The notes: generated by a model not told the origin, from the sequence alone. Counted from the first letter of the stretch, positions 17,521 through 43,030 are shown. The stretch: DNA of 64,000 nucleotides from an uncultured Bacilli bacterium (GCA_934085825.1 CAKOHR010000001.1:64379-128378); one strand, 5' to 3'. Numbers and translations: made by a program.

Positions 17521-17639
17521 ATAAAAAAATGCTCATTTTTTTCTTGTATACTAGGAAAGTCATCCAAAATTTGCAAAATAAAATCTTGATATATGGCCGA
17601 ACATATGATATAATTTAATTGTCCAAGGGGGATTGATTA

Positions 17640-18782
17640 ATGAATACTTATAGAGCATATAAATTAAGAATTTATCCTACTGATTTACAAAGAGAATTAA
17701 TTGAAAAAACTTTTGGGTGTACTAGATATATTTATAATAATTTTCTTGCAGAAAGAAAAAATAAATATGAAGAAAGTAAAATAAAAGTGCATGTTTATGA
17801 ACAGCTAAAAGAACTAACAGATTTAAAAAGGGAAAAAGAATGGTTAAGAGAAATAGATTCATGTGCTTTGCAAGCATCAGTATATAATTTAGATGATGCA
17901 TTTCAAGGATTTTTTCATGGTAAGGGCTATCCAAAATTTATGGCAAAAGGTGTACATGAAAGTTTTAGAACTAATAATACATTAAGTACTTATAAAAATA
18001 AAAAGTATGAAACTATCAGAGTAGATTTTAATAAAAGAATAATAACTTTACCAAAATTAAAAGAAGTAAAGTTTCGAGGATATAGAACAACTAAGGAAAT
18101 CGTAGGAAAAATAAAATCAGCAACAATAAGCAAGGATGCTAACAAATATTTTGTAAGCATCTTAGTTGAAGTGCCATTTTTTAAATATTCAATAAATCCA
18201 ACATCAATCGTGGGATTAGATTTAGGAATTAAAGATTTTATAGTAACATCAAATGGAGAAAAATTAAAAAATGAAGTAAAGATCAATGAGAAGAGATTAA
18301 AAGGATTACAAAGATGGTTAGCTAGATGCAAACCAGGAAGTAAAAATAGATATAAAGTAAAATTAAAAATACAAAGATTATATTTAAAAATTAGGAATGC
18401 CAGAAAATATATGATATATAAACTTGCAAATAATATCTTAAAGGAAAATGACATTGTAGCTGTTGAAACACTAGCTGTTAAAAGCATGTATCAAGTCCAT
18501 AAAATAGCTAAACACTTAAAAAACATACCTATCAGTGAATTTATACGAGTCTTAAAATACAAAGCAGATTGGTTAGGTAAAAAAGTTATTAGTATAAATA
18601 AATATTATCCAAGTAGTCAATGTTGTAATAGATGTGATTATAAAAATGAAGAAGTAAAGGATTTAAGTGTAAGAAAATGGATATGTCCAAGATGTGGATT
18701 TGAACATGACAGAGATATAAATGCAAGTGAAAATATAATGTTTGAAGGATTGAAAATATATATGAAAGAGTGTATAATATAA
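17640..18782 (+). CDS. tnpB: TnpB (OrfB) RNA-guided endonuclease / IS605-family transposase accessory protein
   Basis: 380 aa. N-terminus MNTYRAYKLRIYPT...Q.ELIEKTFGCTRYIYN, a RuvC-like core (GLDLGIKDF), and a C-terminal zinc finger CCNRC...CPRCG. Confidence 0.85.
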   Translation: MNTYRAYKLRIYPTDLQRELIEKTFGCTRYIYNNFLAERKNKYEESKIKVHVYEQLKELTDLKREKEWLREIDSCALQASVYNLDDAFQGFFHGKGYPKFMAKGVHESFRTNNTLSTYKNKKYETIRVDFNKRIITLPKLKEVKFRGYRTTKEIVGKIKSATISKDANKYFVSILVEVPFFKYSINPTSIVGLDLGIKDFIVTSNGEKLKNEVKINEKRLKGLQRWLARCKPGSKNRYKVKLKIQRLYLKIRNARKYMIYKLANNILKENDIVAVETLAVKSMYQVHKIAKHLKNIPISEFIRVLKYKADWLGKKVISINKYYPSSQCCNRCDYKNEEVKDLSVRKWICPRCGFEHDRDINASENIMFEGLKIYMKECII

Positions 18783-18804
18783 ATAAGAACAAAATGAATA
18801 TAAG

Positions 18805-18916
18805 TAGGGTGGCGACCATCCGAAGTTGGTCTGCTTAAGAAACCTAAGGTTTCTGTGAAACAGAAAAGTGTTACCGTGAGGTAACACAGATACTTGAATT
18901 TCGTTAGAAATTTAAG
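18805..18916 (+). ncRNA. omega-RNA (reRNA) scaffold, 3' part, derived from the IS right end (probably begins inside the tnpB 3' end)
   Basis: The block lies immediately after the tnpB stop and ends at the element boundary. It contains the perfect hairpin gtgttacc gtga ggtaacac. A second stem shows compensatory substitutions relative to the copy at 34425-34536. Confidence 0.55.
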
Positions 18917-18970
18917 TTATGTTCTTTATAGTTGGAAGATATAGTATAATTTAAAGTAGAATGAAATGGG

Positions 18971-26136: not shown

Positions 26137-29016
<2,880 letters not shown>

Positions 29017-29053
29017 ATAGATAGTATAATTATATTACTTGAAGAGGTGAAAA

Positions 29054-29542
29054 ATGAAAAAATTGAAAGAATTATGGGGGAAAAATAAAGTACTTATAGT
29101 ACTTGGAATAATATTGGTTATTTGTTTAGTAGCTATTATTATTGTAACTTTTTCTTTCTTTTTAGGAGGAAATAAAGGTGTTTATGGTGATCGTCTTAAA
29201 GACATTGATAAACATCCCGTTACAGAAACTTTAAAAAGTGAATATGTAACAGCTTTGGAAGCTGAAAATAGTGTTACAAGTGTAAGTATGGATATTAAAG
29301 GTAAAATAATTTATATAATTATTAATTTTGCATCTGATACTGCTTTAAATGATGCTGAAGCTTTAGCAGCATTAAGTTTAGATAAACTAGGTGAAGATAT
29401 TTTATCTTTTTATGATATTAATTTTACATTGAAATGTGAAAAAAGTGAAAATAGTGAAGGATTTACAATTCTTGGAGCTAAAAATGTGGCCGGTTCTGGT
29501 TTAGTTTGGAATAATAATACCCCACTAGAAAGTGAAGAATAA
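29054..29542 (+). CDS. hypothetical membrane-anchored protein
   Basis: 162 aa with an N-terminal TM helix. Confidence 0.45.
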   Translation: MKKLKELWGKNKVLIVLGIILVICLVAIIIVTFSFFLGGNKGVYGDRLKDIDKHPVTETLKSEYVTALEAENSVTSVSMDIKGKIIYIIINFASDTALNDAEALAALSLDKLGEDILSFYDINFTLKCEKSENSEGFTILGAKNVAGSGLVWNNNTPLESEE

Positions 29543-31554
29543 TGAAAAAGAAAAGAAGTATAATTATCGTAATTGTTAGTATTTTAGTAGTTGTTGGAGT
29601 AGCAATTCTTTTATACAACTTGTTAAATGATAAAAATAAATTAACTGTTGCAGAACGAAATTGGGTTAATGAAAGTATAGGTACTATTCAAAATATTAAT
29701 ATTGTTAATAATGTTAATGTCTTTGGAAAAGATGGAAGTGGACTATTTTATGATTTTTTGGATGACTTTGAAAAAGAATATGAATTAACTATAAATCCAA
29801 TTACTTTTAATACTGGTAATGTTCCAAGTGGAATTACTTTTAATGAAAAAACAAGTGTGGATGATAATGATATTATTTTTTATAGTGATCATTATGTTTT
29901 AGTGAGTAAAACAGATGATATTATATCAAGTGAAGAAAATTTAAATGGTAAAACAATTGGAATTTTGACTTCCGATCTTAGTTATGTTTCAAAATACATT
30001 AAGAAAGCTACGAATGTAACATTTAAACAATTTGATACTAGAGATGAACTTCTTAAAGATATGGAAGGTTCAGAAAATTATATGCTTGTTTCTTTAATGG
30101 ATTATTTAGATGTAATACTTAGTAAGGATTATAAAGTTGTATACCATTTTAGTGATATAAAGAAATATTTTACATTGAGTACTACAGATGATATCTTATC
30201 AAGTGTATTAATTAAGCATTATAATAAATGGATAAGCAAATTTGATGATATATATAATCAAAATTTATTTAAAACATTTACTCAAAATATGCAAATTAGT
30301 GATACAGAGGTTGATAGCATGCAAAGTGTTATCTATAATTACGGCTTTGTAAATGCATCTCCTTATGAAGTTATTACTGGTGGTAAGTATGGTGGTATAG
30401 TAGCGGTTTATTTAAGTAAATTTAGTAAATTTGCTGATGTTGAATTTAATTTTAATAAATATAAGAATTTTTATAAGTTTGATAAAGCTAAGAAGAATAA
30501 TGAAATAGATTTATATTTTAATTATTATAATTTTGCTGATGATTTTTATCAAACTAGTGGTCTTAATATTGAATATGTAATAGCTTTGCCAAAAAGTGAT
30601 AATACTGTTATTAAATCTATTAATTCCCTGATTGGAAAGACTGTATATGTTCAAGAGAATAGTAAGTTATATGATTATGTAAATGCAATTGAGGGTATTA
30701 ATGTTAAAACATTTAGTACTACTAAAGAATTATTTAAATTAAATAAAAAAGATGTTAATATAATAATTGATAAAAATACTTTTGATTATTATAGTGATAA
30801 TAAATTAAATAATTATAATGTAAGATATACGGATTATATTTTAAATAATTATACATTTAAAGTTAGAACAAATAGTGCATTATATAAATTATTAAATAAA
30901 TATATTAATATATCTGATGATAATGAAATGGTTATTGAAGGACTTTTAAATCATCAAGAAACGGTTAAAAGCGGTGGTATGATAACCAAAATTGCGGAAT
31001 ATATTCTTTATGTTGTTATAATAGTTACAATTATTATTCTTGTAGTGTTTAAGAAAAGTAAAAAAATAACTATTGCTAGAAAAATTAAAAAAGATGATAA
31101 AATGAAATTTATTGATCAATTAACTAGTTTAAAAAATAGAAATTTCTTAAATGAAAATATTGAAACTTGGAATAATAATACTATATATCCTCAGACAATT
31201 ATGGTAGTGGATTTAAATAAGATACAAGAAATAAATGATTTGTATGGCTATAATGAAGGCGATAGACAAATTAAATCTTTAGCTAATGTTTTAATTAAAA
31301 CTCAACTTGACAATAGTGAAGTTATGCGTACTGATGGCAATGAATTTGTTATTTATTTTGTTGGATATAGTCAAAAACAAATTAGTAATTATATATTTAA
31401 ATTAAATAGAGAAATAAAAAAACTACCTTATGATTTTGGAGCAGAAATTGGTTATAGTATGATTCTTGATGATATTAAAACTATTGAAGATGCCTTAAAT
31501 GAAGCTGTAGAAGATATGAAAAAAAATAAGGATAGTAACAATGAAGAAGCTTAA
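29542..31554 (+). CDS. membrane protein with extracytoplasmic sensor region and a degenerate C-terminal GGDEF domain
   Basis: N-terminal TM, a ~450-aa periplasmic-like region, a second TM, then a GGDEF-fold region (LTSLKNRNF, VVDLNKIQEINDLYGYNEGD) in which the signature reads RTDGNEF instead of RxGGDEF. Confidence 0.6.
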   Translation: MKKKRSIIIVIVSILVVVGVAILLYNLLNDKNKLTVAERNWVNESIGTIQNINIVNNVNVFGKDGSGLFYDFLDDFEKEYELTINPITFNTGNVPSGITFNEKTSVDDNDIIFYSDHYVLVSKTDDIISSEENLNGKTIGILTSDLSYVSKYIKKATNVTFKQFDTRDELLKDMEGSENYMLVSLMDYLDVILSKDYKVVYHFSDIKKYFTLSTTDDILSSVLIKHYNKWISKFDDIYNQNLFKTFTQNMQISDTEVDSMQSVIYNYGFVNASPYEVITGGKYGGIVAVYLSKFSKFADVEFNFNKYKNFYKFDKAKKNNEIDLYFNYYNFADDFYQTSGLNIEYVIALPKSDNTVIKSINSLIGKTVYVQENSKLYDYVNAIEGINVKTFSTTKELFKLNKKDVNIIIDKNTFDYYSDNKLNNYNVRYTDYILNNYTFKVRTNSALYKLLNKYINISDDNEMVIEGLLNHQETVKSGGMITKIAEYILYVVIIVTIIILVVFKKSKKITIARKIKKDDKMKFIDQLTSLKNRNFLNENIETWNNNTIYPQTIMVVDLNKIQEINDLYGYNEGDRQIKSLANVLIKTQLDNSEVMRTDGNEFVIYFVGYSQKQISNYIFKLNREIKKLPYDFGAEIGYSMILDDIKTIEDALNEAVEDMKKNKDSNNEEA

Positions 31555-32395
31555 ATGTGAACTGGCGGAGTTTTTTCAAAACTTCAAAAAAGTTTTATTT
31601 AAACCAGAGATGGCAATTTTGCCAGGTCAACTTGCTTACTTCTTTGTTCTAGCAATTGTACCCACAATAACTTTGATAAGCTATGAAGCAACACTTCTTA
31701 ATTTATCAACTGATGTGATATATGATTTTATTGGTTCAGCTTTTTCTGAAGATATTGCTAGTATGCTTTTAGCATCTCCAAATCAATCTGAAAAAGGTAT
31801 AGGATTTTTTCTAGTTGTAATTGTTGGGTATTTCATTGCGTCAAATGGACCTGCTTCAATAATTATTACTTCAAATACGATTTATGGAGAAAAACAGGAC
31901 GGATTTTTTAGAAGAAGATTAAAAGCTTTAATTATGACCTTTGTCTTAGTTTTACTTTTCATATTTATGTTAATAGTACCAGTTTTTGGTACTAAAATAA
32001 TTGAATTGTTTAAATTTGTGGATTTAAAAAGTGGAGTAGCAGAAAATATATCTATGATCATAAGTATTATGCAGGGACCAGTTACATGGCTCATAATGTA
32101 TTTCTTTATTAAGATTCTTTATACTATGGCTCCGAATAAAAAAGTTAGAAGTAAAAATGTTGGTTATGGGGCTTTATTTACAACATTTTCATGGGTAATT
32201 ATCACATATATTTATTCATATTATATAAATAATTTAGCTCACTATTCTACATTTTATGGAGGACTAGCTAATATTGTAATTTTAATGTTTTGGTTCTATC
32301 TTCTTGCATATGCCTTTACAATAGGAATGGCTCTTAATTATCGTAAAGAAGAGATAGAATTAGAAAAAACTGGAACTATAAATTCCATTAAATAG
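31541..32395 (+). CDS. YihY/BrkB family membrane protein
   Basis: QLAYFFVLAIVPTITLI, typical of the YihY/RNase BN-like family, with six TM helices. Confidence 0.7.
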   Translation: MKKLKCELAEFFQNFKKVLFKPEMAILPGQLAYFFVLAIVPTITLISYEATLLNLSTDVIYDFIGSAFSEDIASMLLASPNQSEKGIGFFLVVIVGYFIASNGPASIIITSNTIYGEKQDGFFRRRLKALIMTFVLVLLFIFMLIVPVFGTKIIELFKFVDLKSGVAENISMIISIMQGPVTWLIMYFFIKILYTMAPNKKVRSKNVGYGALFTTFSWVIITYIYSYYINNLAHYSTFYGGLANIVILMFWFYLLAYAFTIGMALNYRKEEIELEKTGTINSIK

Positions 32396-32654
32396 AGAAT
32401 AATAAAGTTATGTACTACGGGTATTACTTATGTACATGATTCCTTTCTTCGATATAACTCTAGTATTAATTTACCTAAAATATATTGAAGAGTAATATTC
32501 AAATAAGACTTGCTTAGTGTGAGTCTTGTTTTTAGTTAAATATTAAAAATAGTGTTATAACAATTGTTCTTTTAACAAAATAATTGTAAAATTTTTTAAA
32601 ATATATTTACATTTTAGTAATATTTTGATAATATTTAATATATAGAATAAAGAG

Positions 32655-33494
32655 GTGCAATTAATTATGAAAGATTTCATTTATGAATTATATCAAAATG
32701 ATAATTTTACTTTGTGGTTAACGATAGCTTTAGTAGTATTAATTATTCTTTTTGTGATAGTATATTTCTTTGGTAAAAAGGATGAAAAGTTAGAAGAAAC
32801 GAGAAGACTTCAAAAAATAGAATTGGATGCTTTTAAAAAAGAAGAGGAAAACTCTAAAAAAATTGAAGTTAAAGAAGAACCTAAGATTGAAGAAAAAGAA
32901 GAAATACGACCTATTGAAGTGGTAAATGAAGAAGTAAATGTTACAGAATTTAAACCAAGTATTGAAGATACTGAAGAAGAAATTGAACTTCCTAAAGTAA
33001 ATGTTGAGTCTAGAGCTAGTAAACCTTTATTTAGTGATCATGAGGAAGAAGAAAGTCCAATTAGTATTAATGAATTACCTGAAATAAAAATCGATGAAAA
33101 AGATGAACAAATTGAGAGTGGTTTATCTAATTTAGAAGCAATTAAAAACGAATTTAATAATATTGATATTCCTGAAATTAAGGAAGAAATTGTACCAGAA
33201 CAAAAACCAGTATTTAAATCTAGTCCTCAAATATTTAGTTCAGTTTTTGTTAATAAAAAGGATGAAAATATAAGTAATAATAATACAGAAGAAGTTGTTA
33301 CAAAGATAGAAGAAAAAGAAGAAAAATCTGAACCTCTTATTAAAACTTTTATAATTGAAGATGATGATGATGAAATGGATTTACCAACATTAAAAAAAGA
33401 TGAAGAATCTGTTAAACCATTAGTATCTGATGAAAATGATAAAAAATCAAGTCTTTTGGATGATGTGAATGGGGAAATATATGAATTAAAATAG
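32655..33494 (+). CDS. hypothetical membrane-anchored, highly acidic E/K-rich protein
   Basis: N-terminal TM helix, then a low-complexity E/K/D-rich region. Confidence 0.45.
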   Translation: MQLIMKDFIYELYQNDNFTLWLTIALVVLIILFVIVYFFGKKDEKLEETRRLQKIELDAFKKEEENSKKIEVKEEPKIEEKEEIRPIEVVNEEVNVTEFKPSIEDTEEEIELPKVNVESRASKPLFSDHEEEESPISINELPEIKIDEKDEQIESGLSNLEAIKNEFNNIDIPEIKEEIVPEQKPVFKSSPQIFSSVFVNKKDENISNNNTEEVVTKIEEKEEKSEPLIKTFIIEDDDDEMDLPTLKKDEESVKPLVSDENDKKSSLLDDVNGEIYELK

Positions 33495-33516
33495 AGCTTA
33501 GCTCTATTTTTCCTTT
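33491..33516 (+). terminator. rho-independent terminator
   Basis: atagagc tta gctctat hairpin plus a T-run. Confidence 0.5.
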
Positions 33517-33611
33517 TTTATATACTAAGATAGTTATCCTAATTCTACAAAAACAAATCTTGATATATGGCCGAACATATGGTATAATTCGATTATCATG
33601 GAGGCATTATA

Positions 33612-34449
33612 ATGACTATATATAAAGCATATAAATTTAGAATTTATCCAAATAGAGAGTAAAAGGTAATGATAGATAAAACTTTGGATGTACGAGGTTT
33701 GTTTTCAATAAATTCTTAGTAGAAAGAAAAAAATATGAAGAAAACAAAATTAAATTAAGTGCTTATGATGAGTTAAAAGAACTAATTGATTTTAAAAAAA
33801 GTGGCTTAAAGAAGTAGATTCATGTGATCTTCAAAAATGTGTATTTAACTTAGATGATGCATTTAAGAATTTTTTTTCGTGAAAATTGATATCCAAAATA
33901 TAGAAGCAAAGGAGAACATGAAAGTTATACAACAAATAACACATTAAATGAATATAAAAATGTTAAATATGAAAGTATAAGAATAGATTTAAAAAAATAA
34001 AGTAATAACATTACCAAGACTAAAAAAAGTAAAGTTTCGAGATATAGAAAACCAAAGTAGTAATAGGAAAAATAAAGTCAGCAACAATTAGTAAAGATGC
34101 TAGCAAGTATTTTGTAAGCATCCTTGTTGAAGAGCCGTTTACTAAACCAACTATAAATCCAACATCAATCTTGGGATTAGATTTAGGCATCAAAGATTTT
34201 ATAATTACTTCATATGGAGAAAAACTAAAAAATGAGGTAAAAGTAAATGAATATTATCCAAGTAGCGAGGTTTGCAATAGATGTGAATATAAAAATGAAG
34301 AAGTAAATGATTTAAGTGTAAGAAAATGGATATGTCCAAGATGTGGAATGGATCATGATAGAGATATAAATGTAAGTGAAAATATAATGTATAATATAAA
34401 TAGGAACGAAATAGCTAAAAATATTAGGGTGGCGACTATCCGAAGTTGA
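33612..34449 (+). pseudogene. tnpB pseudogene (multiple frameshifts, internal deletion)
   Basis: Segments homologous to TnpB lie in three frames. The zinc-finger fragment CNRCEY...CPRCG is retained in ORF 34171..34449. Confidence 0.6.
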
Positions 34450-34536
34450 TCTGCTTGAGAAACTTTGGTTTTCAGCGAAACAGAAAAGTGTTACCGTGAG
34501 GTAACACTGCTACTTGAATTTTGTTAGAAATTTAAG
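34425..34536 (+). ncRNA. omega-RNA-like right-end scaffold of the decayed element
   Basis: About 85% identical to 18805-18916. The gtgttaccgtgaggtaacac hairpin is retained, and there are compensatory changes in the gaaacc/ggtttc stem. Confidence 0.45.
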
Positions 34537-34596
34537 CTTTGTTGTGGTTGCTTTCAAAATAAAATTAGTTTAAAATAAATATTGTGAGAGGTAATT

Positions 34597-34812
34597 ATGA
34601 ATGAAGATATAAAAAAATATGGTATTATGTTGATAATAAATGTAATTTTGTTAATAGTGGAATTGATTTTTAAAATTAAGGGTGTGTTTGGACTTGTACT
34701 TTGTATATTAAGTATTTATTTTATTATTGCTTTATCGATTAGAATACTAAGGTTAACAAATTTATTTAATGAAGAAATAATGGAGAAAATAGATATATTA
34801 TTCTTTCTATGA
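34597..34812 (+). CDS. small hydrophobic membrane protein, first gene of the radical-SAM operon
   Basis: 71 aa with two TM helices. Its stop overlaps the start of the radical-SAM gene (ATGA). Confidence 0.45.
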   Translation: MNEDIKKYGIMLIINVILLIVELIFKIKGVFGLVLCILSIYFIIALSIRILRLTNLFNEEIMEKIDILFFL

Positions 34813-35606
34813 AGTATAAAAAAGTATATATAGAAATAACTAATAATTGTAACCTTAATTGTAGCTTTTGTATTCATAATAAACGTAAAGGTAAATTTAT
34901 GACAATGAATGAATTTAAAATAATTTTGAATAAAATGAAAGGCTATACTAAATATTTATATTTTCATGTTTTAGGAGAACCTCTATTGCATCCTTGTATA
35001 AATGAACTTATTGATGAAGCAAGTAAAGATTTTTATGTGAATATTACAACTAATGGGTATTTAATAAAAAATATAAAAAATAATAAAAATATAAGACAAA
35101 TAAATATATCTCTTCATAGTAGTCTAAATAATAAGGAAAAGTATTTAGAAAGTATTTTTGAAGTAGTTGATAATTTAAAAAAATATACTTATATAAATTA
35201 TAGACTTTGGACTAATAAAAGTGATGAAATAATTAATATTTTAGAAAAAAAGTATAATGTAAAAATTAAAGATTCTAGAAAATTAGAAGAAAATGTTTTT
35301 ATAGATTTTGATAAAGAATTTATTTGGCCTGATTTAAATAACAATATTTGTAAAACATATGGTAGGTGTTATGCTTTGAGGGATCATATAGGAATTTTAG
35401 TTGATGGTACTGTTATTCCTTGTTGTTTGGATGGAAATGGAAAAATTAATTTAGGGAATATATTTGAGGATGATTTAGAAAAAATAATAAATAGTGATAG
35501 ATGTAAATGTATGATAAATGGATTTAAAGAAAGAAAACTTGTAGAACCATTATGTAAACATTGTGGTTTTATAGATAAATTAAGTAAAGATGGAGGTAAA
35601 ATATGA
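34809..35606 (+). CDS. radical SAM protein with C-terminal SPASM/twitch-like Cys-rich domain
   Basis: ITNNCNLNCSFC (Cx3Cx2C) at residues 14-21. The C-terminus has 8 Cys (CKTYGRC, PCC, CKC, CKHCG). Confidence 0.8.
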   Translation: MKYKKVYIEITNNCNLNCSFCIHNKRKGKFMTMNEFKIILNKMKGYTKYLYFHVLGEPLLHPCINELIDEASKDFYVNITTNGYLIKNIKNNKNIRQINISLHSSLNNKEKYLESIFEVVDNLKKYTYINYRLWTNKSDEIINILEKKYNVKIKDSRKLEENVFIDFDKEFIWPDLNNNICKTYGRCYALRDHIGILVDGTVIPCCLDGNGKINLGNIFEDDLEKIINSDRCKCMINGFKERKLVEPLCKHCGFIDKLSKDGGKI

Positions 35607-36712
35607 AAAAATTTGCATGTAAAAACGAAAATGCTATATATTTTGAGACAATTGAAAGTGATTTTAGAACACCTTTTTTTAGAGACATTGATAAGATACT
35701 ATATTCTTTAGCTTTTCAAAGATATATGGATAAAACTCAAGTATTTTCTTTTAAAGAAAATGACCATTTAACAAAAAGAATGATACATGTTTTGTATGTT
35801 AGTAAAATTGCTAGAACAATAGGTAGGAGCTTAGGCTTAAACGAAGATTTAATTGAAGCTGGGGCACTTGGACATGATCTTGGACATACACCATTTGGAC
35901 ATGTTGGAGAAGCAATTTTAAATGAAATAAGTTTAAATGCTGGATGTGGATATTTTAATCATAATGTTCATAGTGTAAGACTTTTAATGAATATTGAAAA
36001 TTATGGAAATGGTAAAAATATAACATTACAGACGCTTGATGCAATCCTTTGTCATAATGGTGAAATAGTAGAAGGTATTTATAAGCCGTGTTCAAAGACT
36101 AAAGATAAGTTTTTAGAAGAATATAAAAATACTTATACAGATAAGGATGCATGTAAAAAGCTTTCTCCGATGACTTTGGAAGGGTGTGTTGTTAGAATTA
36201 GTGATTTAATTGCTTATCTTGGTAGAGATATAGATGATGCAATAAGAATGAATCTTTTAAAATGGGATGATATACCTGAAAATATTACAAAAGTTTTAGG
36301 GAAAAATAATAGTGAAATAGTAAATACAATTATAAATGATATTATAAAAAATAGTGAAGGTAAAAATTACATTAAGTTAAGTGAGGATGTTTATAAAGCT
36401 ATATGTGATTTAAAAGATTTTAATTATAAAAATATTTATTATAAAGCATATACTGATGAAGAGAGAAAGCTTTTGAAGAAGATGATTTTTACTTTATATA
36501 ATACTTATTTGGAGGATTTGGAAAACAATAATTATGAAAGTAATATTATTAAGTCATATTTAAGTAATATGAGTGATGAATATAAAAAAAATAGTAATGC
36601 AAGAATTGCTATTGATTATATTGCTGGAATGACTGATGATTATACTTTAAAAGAATATAATAAAATTTTAAAAATTAAACATAATAGTATTGAGGTGCAA
36701 AATGAAATATAA
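35603..36712 (+). CDS. HD-domain phosphohydrolase (dGTP triphosphohydrolase-like)
   Basis: HVLYVSKIARTIGRSLGL...GALGHDLGHTPFGH (H..HD motif). Overlapping start/stop with its neighbours. Confidence 0.75.
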   Translation: MKKFACKNENAIYFETIESDFRTPFFRDIDKILYSLAFQRYMDKTQVFSFKENDHLTKRMIHVLYVSKIARTIGRSLGLNEDLIEAGALGHDLGHTPFGHVGEAILNEISLNAGCGYFNHNVHSVRLLMNIENYGNGKNITLQTLDAILCHNGEIVEGIYKPCSKTKDKFLEEYKNTYTDKDACKKLSPMTLEGCVVRISDLIAYLGRDIDDAIRMNLLKWDDIPENITKVLGKNNSEIVNTIINDIIKNSEGKNYIKLSEDVYKAICDLKDFNYKNIYYKAYTDEERKLLKKMIFTLYNTYLEDLENNNYESNIIKSYLSNMSDEYKKNSNARIAIDYIAGMTDDYTLKEYNKILKIKHNSIEVQNEI

Positions 36713-37967
36713 AACTTATAATTGTAATTCATTTAATGTTTATACAATTAAAACGGATAAATTTAAAACTAGTCATGTGGAAGTGATTTTTAGAAATATT
36801 GCAAATAAGGAAGATATAGGAGATTATTCTTTTTTAGCAGATATGTTGAGTGAATCAAGTAAAAAATATCCACGTAAAAAAGATTTAATTACAAAGTTTG
36901 AAGAACTTTATAAAATAGTTGTTTTTGCAACAACAGTTAGAGTTGGAAATACTTTAGATTTTCATGTGTCTTTGGATTTTATTAATCCTGAATATATAAA
37001 TGATAAAAATTATATAGAAGAAGTAATTAAAACATTATTTGATATCATAGAAAATCCGAATGTAACTAATGATGAATTTGATTTGAAAACATTTAATATT
37101 GTTAAAGAGAGAATAAAAAGAGAAATAAATAGTTTAAAAGAAAACCCTATGAAACAAAGTATTAAAGAGGCTTTTAAAACTATGAATACTGATACTGCTA
37201 CATCATATGAACTTTTGGGAACACTAGAAAGCTTAGAGAAAATAACTCCTTCTAGTTTATATAAAACTTATAAAAGCTTGAGAAAAAACTTTAAAGTAGA
37301 TATATTTTTAATTGGTAATTTAGAGATGGATGATACTGTTTCATTAATAAAGAAAAATTTTAAAAATAGATATATTGTTGAAGATAAATTTGATTTAATG
37401 GTTGATAATAAAGATGTTAAAAAACCTATTGTAAGAAGTATGCCATCTGATAATGTTCAAGCTAATTTAGTTATGATTTTTAATTTGAAAAATTTTACAG
37501 ATCTTGAAAAAAATATAACTTTTAATATTTTTAATTATTTGTATGGTAGTGGTGGTCTTACATCAAAGTTATATCAAAGTATTAGAGAAAAAAATAGTTT
37601 ATGTTATGCTATAAGTAGTATGTATTTAAAATATGATAAATTATTACTTGTTCATATTTCTTTGGAACAAGCTAATGTTAAAAAAGCTGTTAATTTAGTA
37701 AAAAAAGAATTAAAAAATATGCAAAATGGAGATTTTTCTTTAGAAGAATTAAATGATGCTATTAATAATATGGTAATTTCTTTAGATATGGCTGGAGATA
37801 ATACTGTATCTATTATTAATAATTATGTATTTCATATTTTTGATAATTTACCTATGCCTGATGAAAGAATTGAAATGTTTAAAAATGTAAAAAAAGAAGA
37901 TGTTATAAACGTTGCTAAGAAAGTAAAACTAAATACAATATTTACCCTAGAAGGGAGAAGTAATTAA
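36702..37967 (+). CDS. M16-family peptidase-like protein (non-catalytic subunit, no HxxEH)
   Basis: GAGGTG RBS then ATG at 36702. M16 fold-like length and position, lacking the zinc motif. Paired with the active M16 downstream (YmfF/YmfH-like or PqqF/AlbE-F-like pair). Confidence 0.7.
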   Translation: MKYKTYNCNSFNVYTIKTDKFKTSHVEVIFRNIANKEDIGDYSFLADMLSESSKKYPRKKDLITKFEELYKIVVFATTVRVGNTLDFHVSLDFINPEYINDKNYIEEVIKTLFDIIENPNVTNDEFDLKTFNIVKERIKREINSLKENPMKQSIKEAFKTMNTDTATSYELLGTLESLEKITPSSLYKTYKSLRKNFKVDIFLIGNLEMDDTVSLIKKNFKNRYIVEDKFDLMVDNKDVKKPIVRSMPSDNVQANLVMIFNLKNFTDLEKNITFNIFNYLYGSGGLTSKLYQSIREKNSLCYAISSMYLKYDKLLLVHISLEQANVKKAVNLVKKELKNMQNGDFSLEELNDAINNMVISLDMAGDNTVSIINNYVFHIFDNLPMPDERIEMFKNVKKEDVINVAKKVKLNTIFTLEGRSN

Positions 37968-39253
37968 TGGAAGAATTAAAGTTAAAGGGCTTAAATGAAG
38001 TTATATATGTTTATGAAACTAAATGTGGGCTTAAAATATATATGTGGGTTAATGAAAAAATAAGTAGTATGTATGCTTCTTTATCCGTTAGATATGGTTC
38101 AGTTCATACAAAGTTTAAAATAGGAAAGAAAACATATGAAGTACCAAATGGACTTGCTCATTTTCTTGAACATGTTAAATTTAATGTTGATGAAGAAACT
38201 ACAGCACATGATAAATTTTATAAAATAGGGGGAGATTCAAATGCTTTTACAACATTTGATTATACATCATATTTAGTCTTTGCTACTAAAAATAAGAAAG
38301 AAAATTTAGAAGAATTACTTGATTTTGTATATAATCCTTATTTTACTAAGAAAAATATTGCTAAAGAAAAAGGAATTATAGTGGAAGAAGCTAATATGGG
38401 TATTGATGATCCTTATAGTATTATATTTTTTCATACATTAAAAAATACTTTACAAAAATCTAAATTTAGGAATACAATTACTGGTACACCAGAAGATGTA
38501 GAAAGTATAACACTTGAAGATGTTAAACTTGCTTATGATGCATTTTATCATCCTAAAAATATGTTTTTGACTATTACAGGTAATTTTAATCCATATGAAA
38601 TGGCTAGTATTGTAGAAGAAAATTTAGCTAAAAAAGACTTTAAAGAGTATTTAAATCCTGTAGTAATTAAAGAAAACGAACCAAGGAAAGTTACTAAGAA
38701 GTATACTGAAGAAAAACTTAATTTAACTTATCCTCAAGTAAAATTTACTTTAAAAATGGATATGAATAATTTTAAAAATTATAGTAGATTGGAACTTAAA
38801 ATGTTAACTAATTTATTATTTAATATTAACTTTGGTGTTACTTCTGATTTTAAGGATGAATTAATGCAAAAAGGTATTATTCAAAGTCTGTTTGTTACAA
38901 ATGATATTTATGATGATAATTTTGTTATAACTATTACATCTACAACTAATTTTAAAGAAGAATTAATAAAGAGAGTAAAGGATAAATTAAATAATTTAAG
39001 TGTTAATGAAATAGATTTTAAAAGAAAAAAGAATGCTGCCATAGCAACACTTATCCTTGACTTTGAAGATTTAGAAAATGTAAGTTTTAGATTACAAGAC
39101 GATGTTTTAAATAATGGGGGAATTATTACTAATTTAAAAGAAATTCTTGAAGAAAAAGATGTTTCAGATTTAGAAAATTTAATTAAATTGATTGATACTG
39201 AAAATATGTCAATTAATGTATTTTTACCAAAAGAAAACCAAAAGGAAAAATAA
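37967..39253 (+). CDS. M16-family zinc peptidase (HxxEH)
   Basis: GLAHFLEHVKFN carries the inverted zinc-binding HxxEH motif of pitrilysin-family peptidases. Confidence 0.8.
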   Translation: MEELKLKGLNEVIYVYETKCGLKIYMWVNEKISSMYASLSVRYGSVHTKFKIGKKTYEVPNGLAHFLEHVKFNVDEETTAHDKFYKIGGDSNAFTTFDYTSYLVFATKNKKENLEELLDFVYNPYFTKKNIAKEKGIIVEEANMGIDDPYSIIFFHTLKNTLQKSKFRNTITGTPEDVESITLEDVKLAYDAFYHPKNMFLTITGNFNPYEMASIVEENLAKKDFKEYLNPVVIKENEPRKVTKKYTEEKLNLTYPQVKFTLKMDMNNFKNYSRLELKMLTNLLFNINFGVTSDFKDELMQKGIIQSLFVTNDIYDDNFVITITSTTNFKEELIKRVKDKLNNLSVNEIDFKRKKNAAIATLILDFEDLENVSFRLQDDVLNNGGIITNLKEILEEKDVSDLENLIKLIDTENMSINVFLPKENQKEK

Positions 39254-39272
39254 CCTTTTGGTTTTTAACATA

Positions 39273-39875
39273 CTATCTGTTGTAGAATTCAACGATAAGT
39301 TGTTCATTAATTTCTGGATTAAGTTCGCTTCTTTCAGGAAGTCTAACAAATTTACCAGTTAATTTCTTTTCATCCATTTCTAGAAAAGCTGGAACAGTTC
39401 TCTTTTGTTCAATTGCATCAAGGATAGCTGGATGATTCATAGAGTTTTCTTTAACAGAAATTATATCACCAACTTTAGTAGTGTATGAAGGAATATCAAC
39501 CTTTTTACCATTTACTAAAATATGTCCATGATTAACAATTTGACGAGCACTTCTTCTAGTTCTAGCCATACCTAGACGATAAACCATGTTATCAAGTCTA
39601 GATTCAAGAAGGATTAGTAAGTTTTCCCCAGCAATACCATGCATCTTTGAAGCTTTGTCAAATACTTTGTGGAATTGTTTTTCATTAAGTCCATAAAGAA
39701 TTCTAACTTTTTGTTTTTCTTGCATTTGGATACCATATTCACTTAACTTACGACGACGATCTTGTCCATGTTGTCCTGGTGCATAAGGTCTTTTAGCTAA
39801 ATCTTTGCCATTTTCTAATGTAGAAAAACCAAGTCTTCTAGATTTTTTATAAGCTGGTCCCGTATATCTTGCCAT
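39273..39875 (-). CDS. rpsD: 30S ribosomal protein S4
   Basis: [18 protein letters not shown]...GQHGQ is the canonical S4 N-terminus. The start was chosen at MARYTGP (the tracked ORF extends 5 codons further). Confidence 0.9.
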
Positions 39876-40440
39876 AAAATCTCCTTTCATTTTATTTGCA
39901 AAATATTTATTCTGTTATATCCATTAAATAGGGAGTTTGAATAATTTCTTCAAGGCAGTAAAGAATACTTTATTCCATTAAGGTTCAAACACATTATTTA
40001 TAGGTACAACTCTGCCTAAATAACTTGCAAGTGTATTATATAATAATTCTATGTGTATGTCAAACTATTTTTGAGATTAAATTATGTAATTTATTGACAA
40101 TTTAAAAAAATAACTTACAACTAATGTGTAATTATATTTTGAAAACCTGGCCCATTCCGTAATTTTTGGATAGGGTACGGACTTTCATTTTCTTTTAAAA
40201 ACTTTTATAAGTTTATATTTTTTTATTATCATTATTTTATTTAACCATTTTCTATGAAGGTCAGAATAAACTTTAATAACTTGATTAATAATATTTTTGG
40301 TATTTAATTTGTTTTTTCGTAATATCAAGTATAATAAAAAATTAACTTATTAAATAAGGCATTTTTACCAGTTTTTCCTTGACATTTGCTCCATTTTGTA
40401 TTATTATCTATTGGTATTTACAGAAAAAGGGTGAAGTTTT

Positions 40441-42243
40441 ATGGATAAAATAATTAATATTGCTGTAGTAGCACACGTAGATGCTGGTAAATCAACTTTA
40501 GTAGATGGATTACTTAGACAAAGTGGTGTTTTTAGAGCAAATGAAGAATTAGTAGATTGTGTAATGGATAGCGGAGATATTGAAAAAGAAAGAGGTATTA
40601 CAATTACTGCCAAAAACTGTGCTATCAAATATAAAGATTATAAGATTAACATCGTGGATACTCCAGGTCATGCTGATTTTTCGAGTGAAATTGAAAGAGT
40701 TATTAAAACTGTTGATACAGTTATTTTACTTGTGGATTCTGCGGAAGGACCCATGCCTCAAACAAGATTTGTTTTAAAGGAAGCATTACAAAACAATTTA
40801 AAACCAATTCTATTTATTAATAAAATAGATAAAAAAGATCAAAGAGCTGAAGAAGTTGTTGATATGACATTTAATTTATTCATGGAACTTGGTGCAACAG
40901 ATGAACAACTTGATTTTCCAATTCTTTATGGTAGTGCTAGAAGTGGTTATGCAATTTATAATATGGGGGATGAAGGTAAAGATTTAACTCCATTATTTGA
41001 AACAATAGTAAATAATACTAAACCATTTGAGGGAAATGAAAATGATTCTCTTCAATTGCAAGTGTGTCAACTTGATTATGATGATTATATCGGTAGACTT
41101 GGTATTGGTAGAATTAATAAGGGAAAAATAAAATCAGGTGAAACTGTATCACTTGCAACAAATGAAGGAAAAGTTGAATCATTCAGAGTTACTAAATTGT
41201 TTGTAAATGAAGGAATTAAAAGAGTAGAAGTGCCTGTTGCATATTACGGTGATATAGTAACAGTTGCTGGTTGTGCTGATGTATCAATTGGTGATACAAT
41301 TTGTCAAAAAGATGTAATTAATCCACTTCCTAAAATTGTTATTGAAGAACCAACATTGTCTATGAATTTTTTAGTTAATAATTCTCCATTTGCTGGTCAA
41401 AGTGGTAAATTTTTAACAAGTAGACATTTAAAAGATAGACTTGAAAAAGAATTAGAAACTAATGTAGGTTTAAAAGTTGAACAACTTGAGGGTGCTGATG
41501 GTTTTAAAGTTAGTGGTCGTGGTGAACTTCATTTATCAATTTTACTTGAAAATATGAGAAGAGAAGGTTATGAATTATCTGTTTCTAAACCTGAAGTTAT
41601 TTTTAAAGAAATAGATGGCAAAAAGTGCGAACCATATGAAAAAGTTATAGTAAATGTACCAAATGAATATTCAGGAACTGTAATTAATTCATTGAATGAA
41701 AGAAAAGGTATTATGCAAAGCGTTACTCCAGGTGAAGTTGGATATACAAAAGTTGAATATTTAGTGCCTACCAGAGGATTAATTGGTTATCGTGGTTCAT
41801 TTATTACTGAAACAAAAGGTGAAGGTATCATGGTTCGTTCATTTGATTCATATGGACCTTATGCTGGACCTATTTCAGGACGTAAAAATGGTGTTCTTGT
41901 GTCTATGGTTAATGGTACAACATTTGGTTATTCTCTTTATAACTTAAGCAGTAGAGGAACAATGATTGTAGATCCATCTACTGATGTATATATTGGTATG
42001 ATTATTGGACTTGCTAATAAAGAAGGGGATTTAGATGTAAATCCATGTAAAAATAAGGAACTTACAAATACTAGAAGTGCTCATGCTGATGATGCTATAG
42101 TGTTAAATAAGGCTAAGAAATTTACATTGGAAGAAGCTTTAGAGTTTATTGAAGATGATGAGTATATTGAAGTTACACCAACAGAAATAAGGCTTAGAAA
42201 AAAATATTTAGATTCAAAAGAAAGATATAGAAGATCAAGATAA
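40441..42243 (+). CDS. typA: translational GTPase TypA/BipA
   Basis: AHVDAGKST, DTPGHADF and NKIDK G-motifs. About 600 aa, EF-G-like domain order. Confidence 0.9.
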   Translation: MDKIINIAVVAHVDAGKSTLVDGLLRQSGVFRANEELVDCVMDSGDIEKERGITITAKNCAIKYKDYKINIVDTPGHADFSSEIERVIKTVDTVILLVDSAEGPMPQTRFVLKEALQNNLKPILFINKIDKKDQRAEEVVDMTFNLFMELGATDEQLDFPILYGSARSGYAIYNMGDEGKDLTPLFETIVNNTKPFEGNENDSLQLQVCQLDYDDYIGRLGIGRINKGKIKSGETVSLATNEGKVESFRVTKLFVNEGIKRVEVPVAYYGDIVTVAGCADVSIGDTICQKDVINPLPKIVIEEPTLSMNFLVNNSPFAGQSGKFLTSRHLKDRLEKELETNVGLKVEQLEGADGFKVSGRGELHLSILLENMRREGYELSVSKPEVIFKEIDGKKCEPYEKVIVNVPNEYSGTVINSLNERKGIMQSVTPGEVGYTKVEYLVPTRGLIGYRGSFITETKGEGIMVRSFDSYGPYAGPISGRKNGVLVSMVNGTTFGYSLYNLSSRGTMIVDPSTDVYIGMIIGLANKEGDLDVNPCKNKELTNTRSAHADDAIVLNKAKKFTLEEALEFIEDDEYIEVTPTEIRLRKKYLDSKERYRRSR

Positions 42244-42269
42244 GACTTTAAAAGGTCTTATTTTTTTTG
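42241..42269 (+). terminator. rho-independent terminator after typA
   Basis: taagac tttaaaag gtctta hairpin plus T8. Confidence 0.5.
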
Positions 42270-42352
42270 AAAAAAATGGGGCGTTAGTAATTTGTTAAAT
42301 TTGGACTAGCTCATAAGATATAGTAAGAAGTAACCTTAAAGGAGGTGATATC

Positions 42353-42622
42353 TTGACTATATCATTATCAGTGGTCATAATGCTTGTAGCATATATTTTC
42401 GGAGCCATTACTAAAATATTTATAGAAAAACTACCTAATAATTTTATACCTATTCAAAATGTTGTAATAGGAGTAATTAGTGGTGTTATCTGTTACTTTT
42501 TAAAACTTGATGATAATTTACTTAACTCCATTTTAGTAGGACTTATGTCTACGATGAGTGCAGGCGGAATAGCAGATCTCATAGAAGTGAAAAAAACACA
42601 AGATAATGAAACTAAAGGTTAA
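42353..42622 (+). CDS. small hypothetical membrane protein
   Basis: 89 aa with two hydrophobic helices. Confidence 0.4.
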   Translation: MTISLSVVIMLVAYIFGAITKIFIEKLPNNFIPIQNVVIGVISGVICYFLKLDDNLLNSILVGLMSTMSAGGIADLIEVKKTQDNETKG

Positions 42623-42743
42623 ATGATTTTTCTATAAGCAAATGACAATTGTATGACTAATGTTTTTAATATCAATTTGTAGTTTGAAATTATTATAATT
42701 TTATGATAATATAAGTCTATATGAATGAAAAATTCATATAATA

Positions 42744-42861
42744 AAAAAAGAAACATTTGATTTTCATAGGTCAATGCTTACTTTTTTATGTAGATGATGT
42801 TTACTTGAACATTTATAATGACAAGTAAACATTTTTTTAATGAAGCAAAAATCAAATGTTT
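42744..42861. repeat. nested-palindrome repeat element, copy 1 (outer 15-20 bp inverted arms enclosing a terminator-like hairpin)
   Basis: The outer arm aaaaaagaaacatttgatttt (42744-42764) is the reverse complement of aaaatcaaatgtttc (42847-42861). The inner hairpin is gtttacttg (42799-42807) / caagtaaac (42822-42830), followed by TTTTTTT. The same architecture recurs at 51984-52172. Confidence 0.5.
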
Positions 42862-42942
42862 CAATATTTTTTGTAACAAAAATGTGACTATAAGTAAAAG
42901 AAAATATACTTTTATAAAATATAACTTTTTTATGCAAATGAT

Positions 42943-42980
42943 GTTTACTTGAACGTTTAAAGTTTAGGTAAACTTTTTTT
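42943..42980 (+). terminator. second gtttac...gtaaac hairpin plus T-run in the ATPase leader (attenuator-like)
   Basis: gtttac (42943-42948) ... gtaaac (42968-42973) followed by TTTTTTT, about 50 nt upstream of the ATPase start codon. Confidence 0.4.
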
Positions 42981-43030
42981 GTTCTACTTACGATAGCTTG
43001 TACATATTATTATTCTGGGAGGAAAGGCAC

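Follow-up and report, generated by a model that had tools for sequence, protein, structure and literature searches.

Gene content and boundaries of the locus

In the window (the whole stretch of 64,000 nt from an uncultured Bacilli bacterium that was analysed), the region 34597-39253 contains five co-directional ORFs on the plus strand. Reading the junctions directly in the sequence shows an overlap at each of them, in agreement with the ORF listing and with the initial annotation, which had described a five-gene string with overlapping stops and starts. The first gene encodes a 71-aa protein with two predicted transmembrane segments (TM71, 34597-34812), and its stop overlaps the start of the gene for a 265-aa radical SAM enzyme (rSAM, 34809-35606) by 4 nt (ATGA). 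This junction has no Shine-Dalgarno sequence, and translation of rSAM would thus depend on coupling. An identical 4-nt overlap (ATGA), with GGAGGT 5' of it, joins rSAM to the gene for a 369-aa HD-domain protein of the Dgt family of dNTP triphosphohydrolases (35603-36712). The last two genes encode the M16 family proteins M16A (36702-37967, 421 aa) and M16B (37967-39253, 428 aa); the HD and M16A genes overlap by 11-23 nt, and the M16A and M16B genes by 1 nt (TAATG). The ORF listing gives an alternative M16A start, TTG at 36690 (425 aa), but the ATG at 36702 is the more likely one, since GAGGTG lies 5 nt upstream of it.

A terminator scan detected no plus-strand terminators inside the string. 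The same scan and reading of the sequence place a hairpin with a 12-bp stem (39234-39265) between M16B and the convergent rpsD gene (ribosomal protein S4; 39273-39890, minus strand), and this hairpin is likely a bidirectional terminator that closes the operon. The rpsD gene, whose product matches Pfam Ribosomal_S4 in relatives, serves as a convergent syntenic anchor of the M16 pair. Rfam searches gave no match in positions 28000-43000 of the window (E up to 0.1); in 10 orthologous loci they returned two T-boxes, both distant, and nothing else. They thus offer no riboswitch or leader clue to the role of rSAM.

Upstream of the string lies a decayed TnpB-only element of the IS200/605 type (33514-34543, plus strand), including a 3' RNA-like tail with a hairpin at 34487-34508. 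It is 77-80% identical at the nucleotide level to an intact element at 17540-18923 (blastn), from which it differs by an internal deletion of about 305 bp. A tblastn search with an intact TnpB shows the ORF to be broken across three frames, with aa 218-313 missing, and a 92-aa remnant is matched by Pfam Cas12f1-like_TNB and NCBIfam IS200_TnpB; the string was thus correctly described as lying just downstream of a decayed TnpB. The insert is lacking in 85%-identical relatives, and comparison with these placed the insertion junctions within the intergenic region that originally preceded the operon. A promoter-like TTGCTT-17-TAAAAT at 34548-34576 (plus strand) is followed by a ribosome-binding site (GAGAGGTAA, 34585-34593). 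It scores below the threshold of a consensus promoter scan, and its sequence is conserved in loci L001 and L002, where the intergenic region has no insertion. From this conservation we infer that it is the native operon promoter, retained directly 3' of the IS insertion; in this genome only, the TnpB element would have inserted just 5' of the site and decayed afterwards.

The HD protein and the M16 pair

The HD protein matches Pfam HD and HD_assoc, with the HD dyad at residue 91, and scores 184.8 bits against TIGR01353 (dGTPase subfamily), above the cut-off of 152.35, in line with its earlier description as a dGTPase-like HD hydrolase. Among PDB entries, the putative dGTPase 2dqb is the closest to it (E 2e-37). 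These features are shared with Dgt / TT1383-type dNTP triphosphohydrolases, from which the protein differs in scoring under every equivalog cut-off (e.g. NF002327, 296.9 bits vs 393). The PADLOC dGTPase model gives 210.6 bits; this model lacks a cut-off and picks up housekeeping Dgt proteins as well. Assignment as an anti-phage dGTPase was rejected (NF041026, 133.9 bits vs 400). By its family, the HD protein would convert dNTPs to deoxynucleoside and triphosphate.

M16A has a Peptidase_M16_C domain only and lacks HxxEH, whereas M16B matches both Pfam Peptidase_M16 and M16_C and carries HFLEH at residue 65, as expected from the earlier description of a pseudo-peptidase followed by an active M16 peptidase. 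M16B scores 269.3 bits against NCBIfam YfmH_fam (residues 7-420), above the cut-off of 250, compared with 18.5 bits against the PqqF model (cut-off 320), 53.8 bits against an AlbF homolog and 164 bits against an unnamed M16 protein (4xea). M16A aligns with YfmF_fam over its full length (14-422 vs model 2-411/412; 255.3 bits, E 1e-75), but stays under the curated cut-off of 285, an observation that runs counter to a housekeeping view of the string. The two genes lie side by side in every locus that holds both. M16A and M16B can be regarded as the YmfF-like non-catalytic and YmfH-like catalytic subunits, respectively: YmfH would bring the HFLEH zinc site and YmfF would be the inactive partner in a heteromeric M16 peptidase that may degrade or process short peptides.

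YmfF/YmfH is a widely distributed heteromeric protease with a presumed general function, and both heteromer formation and peptidase activity have been shown for the B. subtilis pair and for PttP1/P2 (PMC8960859). YmfF/YmfH homologs have a weak RiPP leader-peptidase activity and can cleave lanthipeptide leaders, and PttP1/P2 are dedicated paralogs within lanthipeptide clusters (PMC8960859); these data, too, run counter to a strictly housekeeping view. The two NCBIfam models (NF047422 / NF047421) represent the B. subtilis YmfF/YmfH pair and are named 'EF-P 5-aminopentanol modification-associated'. The product of yfkA is a radical SAM enzyme. In B. subtilis, yfkA influences EF-P aminopentanolylation (PMC5885033); the yfkA family differs from that of the rSAM described here, and no EF-P link is therefore claimed.

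The radical SAM enzyme, TM71 and their neighborhoods

The rSAM protein matches Pfam Radical_SAM and SPASM. Its CX3CX2C motif (CNLNCSFC, residues 14-21) is kept in 98% of 54 orthologs. The initial annotation had noted this motif together with eight C-terminal cysteines in a SPASM/twitch-like C-terminus; the motif and the eight cysteines are present, but only five of the eight (C187, C205, C206, C249 and C252) are conserved across the 54 orthologs, and C181, C232 and C234 are lineage-specific. A full SPASM domain of RiPP maturases has about seven conserved cysteines and two auxiliary clusters. The five conserved residues indicate a single auxiliary cluster, and the C-terminal domain has the properties of a twitch domain: the SPASM is truncated, its auxiliary [4Fe-4S] site is a single one, and the fold matches, being BtrN-like.

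The best two structural matches of rSAM are BtrN and BlsE, both small-molecule enzymes; other structural neighbors include viperins and some RiPP maturases (e.g. SuiB and SkfB). No equivalog cut-off of NCBIfam is reached, and the best match, a tungsten-oxidoreductase rSAM maturase, scores 70.8 bits (cut-off 380) over residues 2-152. Classification as an anaerobic RNR activase, which had been named as an outcome that would weaken a RiPP interpretation, did not follow (NrdG2, TIGR02495, 23.8 bits vs cut-off 131.15). A prokaryotic viperin was likewise rejected (NF038283, 32.3 bits vs 180; PADLOC pVip matches limited to residues 6-115). The enzyme would cleave SAM reductively at the CX3CX2C cluster, take a hydrogen atom from its substrate and hand an electron to the single auxiliary [4Fe-4S] cluster. 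This would amount to a BtrN-type two-electron oxidation, with a substrate that is most likely a small molecule or a target encoded elsewhere.

TM71 was correctly predicted as a two-TM protein and is a real, clade-restricted gene product, with 49-87% identity and an invariant C-terminal DILFF; within its clade it is without exception directly upstream of rSAM. The protein is hydrophobic, contains one cysteine, and has no match in Pfam, NCBIfam or PADLOC. Its relatives in a database of 5.8 billion proteins form 74 clusters, every one of at least 65% identity, and an HMM built from nine TM71 sequences found nothing below E 0.025 in six-frame translations of the 54 rSAM loci. TM71 was therefore rejected as a conserved partner or substrate of rSAM.

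Orthologs of rSAM with 52-64% identity occur across many lineages of gut Bacilli, without TM71, M16 or a conserved small ORF nearby, and others are found in Clostridia and Victivallales. Among 53 species genomes, HD/M16 genes are adjacent to rSAM in nine, all within two subgroups close to each other (13 and 14), and in three loci (L009, L056 and L088) a 574-aa fn3 gene lies between rSAM and HD, so that the rSAM-HD link is loose. The uvrA gene is downstream of rSAM in 19/53 genomes, spread over many subgroups, and recA lies about 4 kb upstream in group 14. Further neighbors include PFOR, an FAD oxidoreductase and a 217-aa TM protein (TM217). NCBIfam was uninformative for the SDR, XRE regulator, 183-aa protein and 217-aa TM protein beside rSAM orthologs; judged by the NCBIfam cut-off, this SDR does not resemble YmfI. 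The neighborhoods of the distant orthologs (Clostridium, Eubacteriales, Victivallales) have no gene in common.

The M16-centered comparison took in 44 loci in which the upstream sequence extends for 4.5 kb or more, split at 55% M16B identity. At or above this value HD is present in 27/27 loci, rSAM in 26/27 and TM71 in 25/27; below it, HD lies upstream of the pair in 12/17 and rSAM in 0/17. In most loci the M16 pair is followed by rpsD, to about 39-40% M16B identity. The question of whether rSAM and HD always accompany the M16 pair is thus answered in the negative, with rSAM missing from all 17 distant M16 loci and located elsewhere in 44 of the 53 rSAM genomes. These distributions show separate evolutionary histories for rSAM and the M16 pair, with HD as an old neighbor of the pair and TM71-rSAM as a later arrival. 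The alternative raised initially, a housekeeping YmfF/YmfH pair with an rSAM-HD pair inserted upstream, stands in that genes were added upstream of the M16 pair; the added genes are TM71-rSAM rather than rSAM-HD. Tight overlaps at 4/4 junctions and the presence of the block in 25/27 close loci run counter to a housekeeping view, and a function acquired in the clade is possible.

Interpretation and comparison with known systems

The string very probably consists of unrelated housekeeping genes that are co-directional and probably co-transcribed, without forming one pathway. The HD-YmfF-YmfH block, convergent with rpsD, is of long standing in these low-GC gut Bacilli. In one subclade, the clade-specific TM71 gene and the widely conserved stand-alone rSAM gene came to lie directly upstream of this block, with the stop/start overlaps arising after their arrival. 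Overlapping stops and starts are usual in compact AT-rich genomes of this kind.

A RiPP-like maturation system, modeled on PqqE with PqqF/G or AlbA with AlbE/F, had been proposed in the initial annotation. In its genuine form, with rSAM modifying TM71 or a peptide encoded elsewhere and the M16 heterodimer removing the leader, we consider it highly improbable, as it fails on synteny and precursor, the grounds that this annotation had itself named for refutation, and also on RRE and the twitch domain. It could draw on the small ORF coupled directly 5' of a SPASM-type enzyme, the inactive and active M16 proteins, the invariant aromatic C-terminus of TM71, the maturases SuiB and SkfB among the structural neighbors and the ability of YmfF/YmfH-type pairs to cleave lanthipeptide leaders (PMC8960859). 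However, the M16 pair is an ancestral YmfF/YmfH found without rSAM in every distant locus, rSAM orthologs lack TM71, M16 and a conserved small ORF, and the hydrophobic TM71, with its two TM segments, has only one cysteine. PqqD/RRE Pfam domains are absent from all five proteins, and rSAM has no room for an N-terminal RRE as its cluster motif begins at residue 14; its cysteines are conserved for one auxiliary cluster only. Scores against RiPP models are far from their cut-offs (PqqE 33 bits vs 381, StsB 24 vs 625, mycofactocin 27 vs 265, CbpB 36 vs 375; for M16B, PqqF as given above), and transporter and immunity genes are absent. The earlier remark that no obvious precursor gene is present was confirmed by listing all 12-75-aa ORFs on both strands of 33500-34830 and by clustering 762 small ORFs flanking rSAM in 54 loci, where the recurring ones are alternative-frame shadows and TM71, none of them Cys/Gly-rich.

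That rSAM and the HD dNTPase form a nucleotide-centered pair, in a viperin-like or dNTP-depleting defense or in nucleotide or DNA-lesion processing, is very unlikely. The overlap of the rSAM stop with the HD start, the PADLOC dGTPase score, the matches of pVip models to the rSAM N-terminus (E 2e-11), the viperins among its structural neighbors and the proximity of uvrA and recA are consistent with such a pair, but rSAM and HD are neighbors only in two related subgroups, with the 574-aa gene intervening in some members, and HD accompanies M16 without rSAM in 12 distant loci. The pVip matches cover the generic core alone (residues 6-111), the viperin and anti-phage dGTPase models reach 32 of 180 and 134 of 400 bits, and features of a defense island are absent; PADLOC yields only these pVip matches and the generic dGTPase match, and a defense system was rejected. 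As uvrB-uvrA-lgt-trxB is a conserved housekeeping block, the rSAM-uvrA adjacency may be inherited synteny, and we found nothing relevant in the literature on an rSAM-dGTPase association. The recurrence of uvrA and, in two subgroups, of the dNTPase could also point to rSAM, a member of a large, well-conserved and uncharacterized family, as a novel radical enzyme with nucleotides or damaged DNA as its substrate and, in its clade, with TM71 as a possible dedicated partner; this we regard as quite unlikely. It is also unlikely that rSAM matures a protein encoded elsewhere (as an anaerobic sulfatase-maturating-like enzyme, or as a cofactor or enzyme maturase) beside otherwise unrelated housekeeping genes. 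The variable rSAM neighborhood fits a target encoded in trans and the best NCBIfam match is a maturase, but that match is far under its cut-off, the two best structural matches are small-molecule enzymes, and no sulfatase or tungstoenzyme was seen nearby. Moreover, a length of 265 aa and one auxiliary cluster are much closer to BtrN than to anSME, which has 370 aa and a full SPASM.

Under the preferred reading of unrelated housekeeping genes, the locus calls for caution, as an rSAM with a Pfam SPASM match beside an M16 pair mimics a RiPP cluster. Here the likeness would have arisen as housekeeping genes came to lie side by side in the compact genomes of one lineage, and the string would be a false positive for genome-mining pipelines that score rSAM/M16 co-occurrence. 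Modestly useful is the description of a widespread, highly conserved minimal twitch rSAM family in uncultured gut Bacilli for which no operon partner offers a functional clue. That a Dgt-type dNTPase has long stood beside YmfF/YmfH and rpsD in these lineages is a lesser point of synteny.

Superficially, the string resembles the subtilosin (sbo-alb) and PQQ (pqq) clusters in combining, on one strand, an rSAM with a SPASM-type match and an inactive/active M16 pair. In contrast to these clusters it has no precursor and no RRE/PqqD, carries a twitch instead of a full SPASM domain, stays under the PqqE and PqqF cut-offs and is less similar to the AlbF homolog than to a generic M16 protein. The prototype twitch-domain radical SAM enzyme is BtrN (2-deoxy-scyllo-inosamine dehydrogenase, PDB 4M7T/4M7S), to which rSAM is about 18-22% identical. 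BtrN acts in the biosynthesis of butirosin, an aminoglycoside, whereas aminoglycoside genes occur in 0/53 rSAM contexts; rSAM was thus rejected as a BtrN ortholog (DOIA dehydrogenase), and, unlike that of BtrN, its gene stands alone and is conserved in the manner of a housekeeping gene in gut Bacilli, Clostridia and Victivallales. As in YmfF/YmfH, M16A and M16B are encoded by two adjacent genes for proteins of ~420-430 aa, the first inactive and the second with HFLEH. In B. subtilis, a ymfI-type SDR lies 3' of the pair; here this position is taken by the convergent rpsD, and, unlike in B. subtilis, an HD dNTPase lies 5' of the M16 pair in this lineage.

Organization of the gene string and its upstream region

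The five genes that the initial annotation had described as translationally coupled do form a continuous string, all on the + strand and with overlapping junctions that can be read from the sequence, and they are probably an operon. The gene for a 71-aa two-TM protein (TM71, 34597-34812) meets that for a 265-aa radical SAM enzyme (rSAM, 34809-35606) at an ATGA, as does rSAM the gene for a 369-aa Dgt-family HD protein (35603-36712), where GGAGGT lies ahead of the overlap. For the YmfF-like subunit M16A (ending at 37967), an ATG at 36702 (421 aa) is a likelier start than the listed TTG at 36690 (425 aa), since GAGGTG lies 5 nt upstream of the ATG; the overlap with HD is then 11 nt. The YmfH-like subunit M16B (37967-39253, 428 aa) follows at a TAATG. 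In this AT-rich window (GC 23-34% in 2-kb windows), the terminator scan gave no + strand terminator-like site within the string and a 12-bp hairpin (39234-39265) between M16B and the convergent rpsD.

The decayed TnpB element reported just upstream is likewise real: 33514-34543 aligns to an intact element (17540-18923) with 77-80% identity and a deletion of ~305 bp, and its reading frame is divided among three frames, with residues 218-313 missing. The insertion, which 85% identical relatives do not carry upstream of the string, divided a native intergenic region of ~85 nt just upstream of a conserved promoter-like site (TTGCTT-17-TAAAAT, 34548-34576). A 9-bp GC-containing hairpin in the 3' tail of the remnant (34487-34508, AGTGTTACC...GGTAACACT) was scored on the minus strand by the terminator scan; it is probably a piece of the guide-RNA scaffold of the element, not a terminator. 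The intact copy is a TnpB-only element of the same family (380 aa, ORF 17640-18782, + strand). In the locus of a sister species, a TnpB (L060, 10397-11539) lies between M16B and rpsD; as it is 85.5% identical to the intact protein of the window, the family seems to have been active in this clade, with at least two insertions beside the operon.

Directly 5' of TM71 across the clade is a gene for a membrane-anchored, highly acidic, E/K-rich protein of 279 aa (32655-33494; 47-79% identity), without a family match in Pfam or NCBIfam, so that the syntenic block begins one gene before the string. It is preceded by genes for a 670-aa membrane protein (29542-31554; GGDEF domain at the C terminus, N-terminal region weakly periplasmic-binding-protein-like), and for a YihY/BrkB family membrane protein (31541-32395) overlapping the end of the former by 14 nt, both kept upstream in the closest relatives.

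Assignment of the M16 pair and the HD protein

In Pfam, M16A matches M16_C alone and M16B matches M16 and M16_C. NCBIfam places them in the YfmF/YfmH families ('EF-P 5-aminopentanol modification-associated'), M16B with 269.3 bits against a YfmH cut-off of 250 and M16A, in a full-length match (E 1e-75), just under the YfmF cut-off (255.3 vs 285 bits). The PqqF model gives 18.5 bits (cut-off 320), and in the PDB sequence set M16B scores 164 bits with 4xea, an unnamed M16 protein, vs 53.8 bits with an AlbF homologue. The pair is most likely a putative YmfF/YmfH heteromeric M16 peptidase. YmfF/YmfH of B. subtilis has been demonstrated to be a heteromeric protease, of a widely distributed family that has a presumed general function and acts weakly on precursors of class III lanthipeptides (PMC8960859), and has also been detected in the proteome of the spore inner membrane (PMC13393411).

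The HD protein (HD and HD_assoc in Pfam) lies above the cut-off of the dGTPase subfamily model TIGR01353 (184.8 vs 152.35) and under every equivalog cut-off in NCBIfam; with the model for anti-phage dGTPases it also stays below the cut-off (133.9 vs 400). Its nearest solved relative is a putative dGTPase (PDB 2dqb), and by sequence it is most likely a Dgt-type dNTPase. No rSAM-dGTPase association was found in the literature, and PADLOC gave generic matches only. The yfkA product of B. subtilis is, we assume, a radical SAM enzyme of a family different from that of rSAM, and we therefore draw no link between the two; the gene affects EF-P aminopentanolylation (PMC5885033).

Conservation of the neighborhood and precursor search

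Scanning metagenomes with an alignment of M16B yielded 80 loci, at identities from 89% to 39%, of which 44 had at least 4.5 kb of upstream sequence for gene counts. Where M16B is at least 55% identical (n = 27), HD is found in 27/27, rSAM in 26/27 and TM71 in 25/27; below 55% (n = 17), HD is found in 12/17, adjacent or 1.1-1.9 kb off, and rSAM in 0/17. In most loci rpsD is convergent downstream of the pair. In the three distant loci with such a gap that were inspected (L112, 3906-5672; L125, 4161-5681; L129, 4002-5552), the protein encoded between HD and the M16 pair has 500-590 aa, is anchored in the membrane at its N terminus and carries repetitive Y/D/K-rich segments of beta-propeller-like appearance; similar HD-M16A gaps occur in further distant loci.

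Seen from rSAM, with one genome per species (55 loci, 53 usable; mostly MAGs of uncultured gut Bacilli, 'Tenericutes' and Erysipelotrichaceae, but also a Clostridium, Eubacteriales and a Victivallales), HD/M16/M16 lie within 5 kb in only 9/53 loci, all in two adjacent sequence subgroups. In 19 loci from many subgroups uvrA comes just after rSAM, as part of a housekeeping region (uvrB...uvrA-lgt-trxB), and in one other subgroup rSAM is flanked by PFOR, an FAD oxidoreductase and a 217-aa membrane protein; distant orthologues (39-47% identity) have no neighbors in common. Even the rSAM-HD junction is not fixed, since in one subgroup (L009, L056, L088; e.g., L056 8086-9810) a gene of 574 aa, which matches fn3 weakly, intervenes. 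Outside the clade of the window, the tightest recurrent neighbor is a 183-aa protein without an NCBIfam match (L027 7801-8352 and 10 other loci), between rSAM and uvrA, directly 3' of rSAM and translationally coupled to it (offset -7 to +21, 11 loci). A 95-aa ORF with 16 Cys and several CxxC, ~190 bp 3' of a distant orthologue, occurs in one locus only (L045, 8043-8330, + strand; a Bacillota MAG) and may encode a zinc-ribbon protein or have arisen by chance.

The precursor peptide that a RiPP-like system would call for did not emerge: 33500-34830 holds no Cys/Gly-rich small ORF, and clustering of 762 small ORFs from the flanks of 54 loci returned, apart from TM71, nothing but shadows of conserved genes in other frames. 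Neither in the window nor at 10 orthologous loci did Rfam show anything close to rSAM. TM71 itself is a genuine gene: its length, two hydrophobic segments, invariant C-terminal DILFF and 4-nt rSAM overlap are all kept at 49-87% identity across the clade. It is clade-restricted (only 74 clusters in a large database, all at least 65% identical), and its HMM found no match beside rSAM orthologues elsewhere. As orthologues at 52-64% identity manage without it, TM71 is unlikely to be a conserved rSAM substrate and is most likely a clade-specific small membrane protein.

The initial annotation had proposed a RiPP-like maturation system, a reading that would weaken if the M16 pair were conserved apart from rSAM/HD with no small precursor nearby. 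The separation is seen in both directions, as rSAM is missing beside the distant M16 pairs and HD/M16 beside most rSAM orthologues. The best explanation of the string is that housekeeping functions have come to lie side by side, with an old HD-YmfF-YmfH-rpsD arrangement that the TM71-rSAM pair joined later in one subclade. We infer the enzymatic steps of its proteins from family membership and predicted fold.

The radical SAM enzyme and known systems

Pfam assigns Radical_SAM and SPASM to rSAM, and no NCBIfam model comes near its cut-off: the top match is a tungsten-oxidoreductase maturase (70.8 vs 380), with lower scores for PqqE (33/381), viperin (32/180), StsB (24/625) and NrdG2 (24/131). 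It belongs to a large, well-conserved family: every one of the best 120 database matches is full-length and 59-98% identical. The residual novelty of the string is limited to the function of this family. Two alignments, with 41 and 54 orthologues, show conservation only of Cys 14, 18, 21, 187, 205, 206, 249 and 252. Five of the eight C-terminal Cys noted initially are thus retained, while 181, 232 and 234 are lineage-specific; as the conserved set suffices for one auxiliary cluster, the domain would be a twitch, not a SPASM (defined in PMC9012708). The CX3CX2C begins at residue 14, so an N-terminal RiPP recognition element is absent, and Pfam finds no PqqD-like protein among the five. The RiPP analogy is a Pfam-level resemblance that fails at the family, architectural and comparative levels. 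The closest likeness is instead to BtrN, the best structural match of the AlphaFold2 model (mean pLDDT 92.7; Foldseek E 9e-12) and the top match by sequence too; rSAM is most likely a BtrN-like twitch oxidoreductase, with a small molecule or a trans-encoded target as its predicted substrate.
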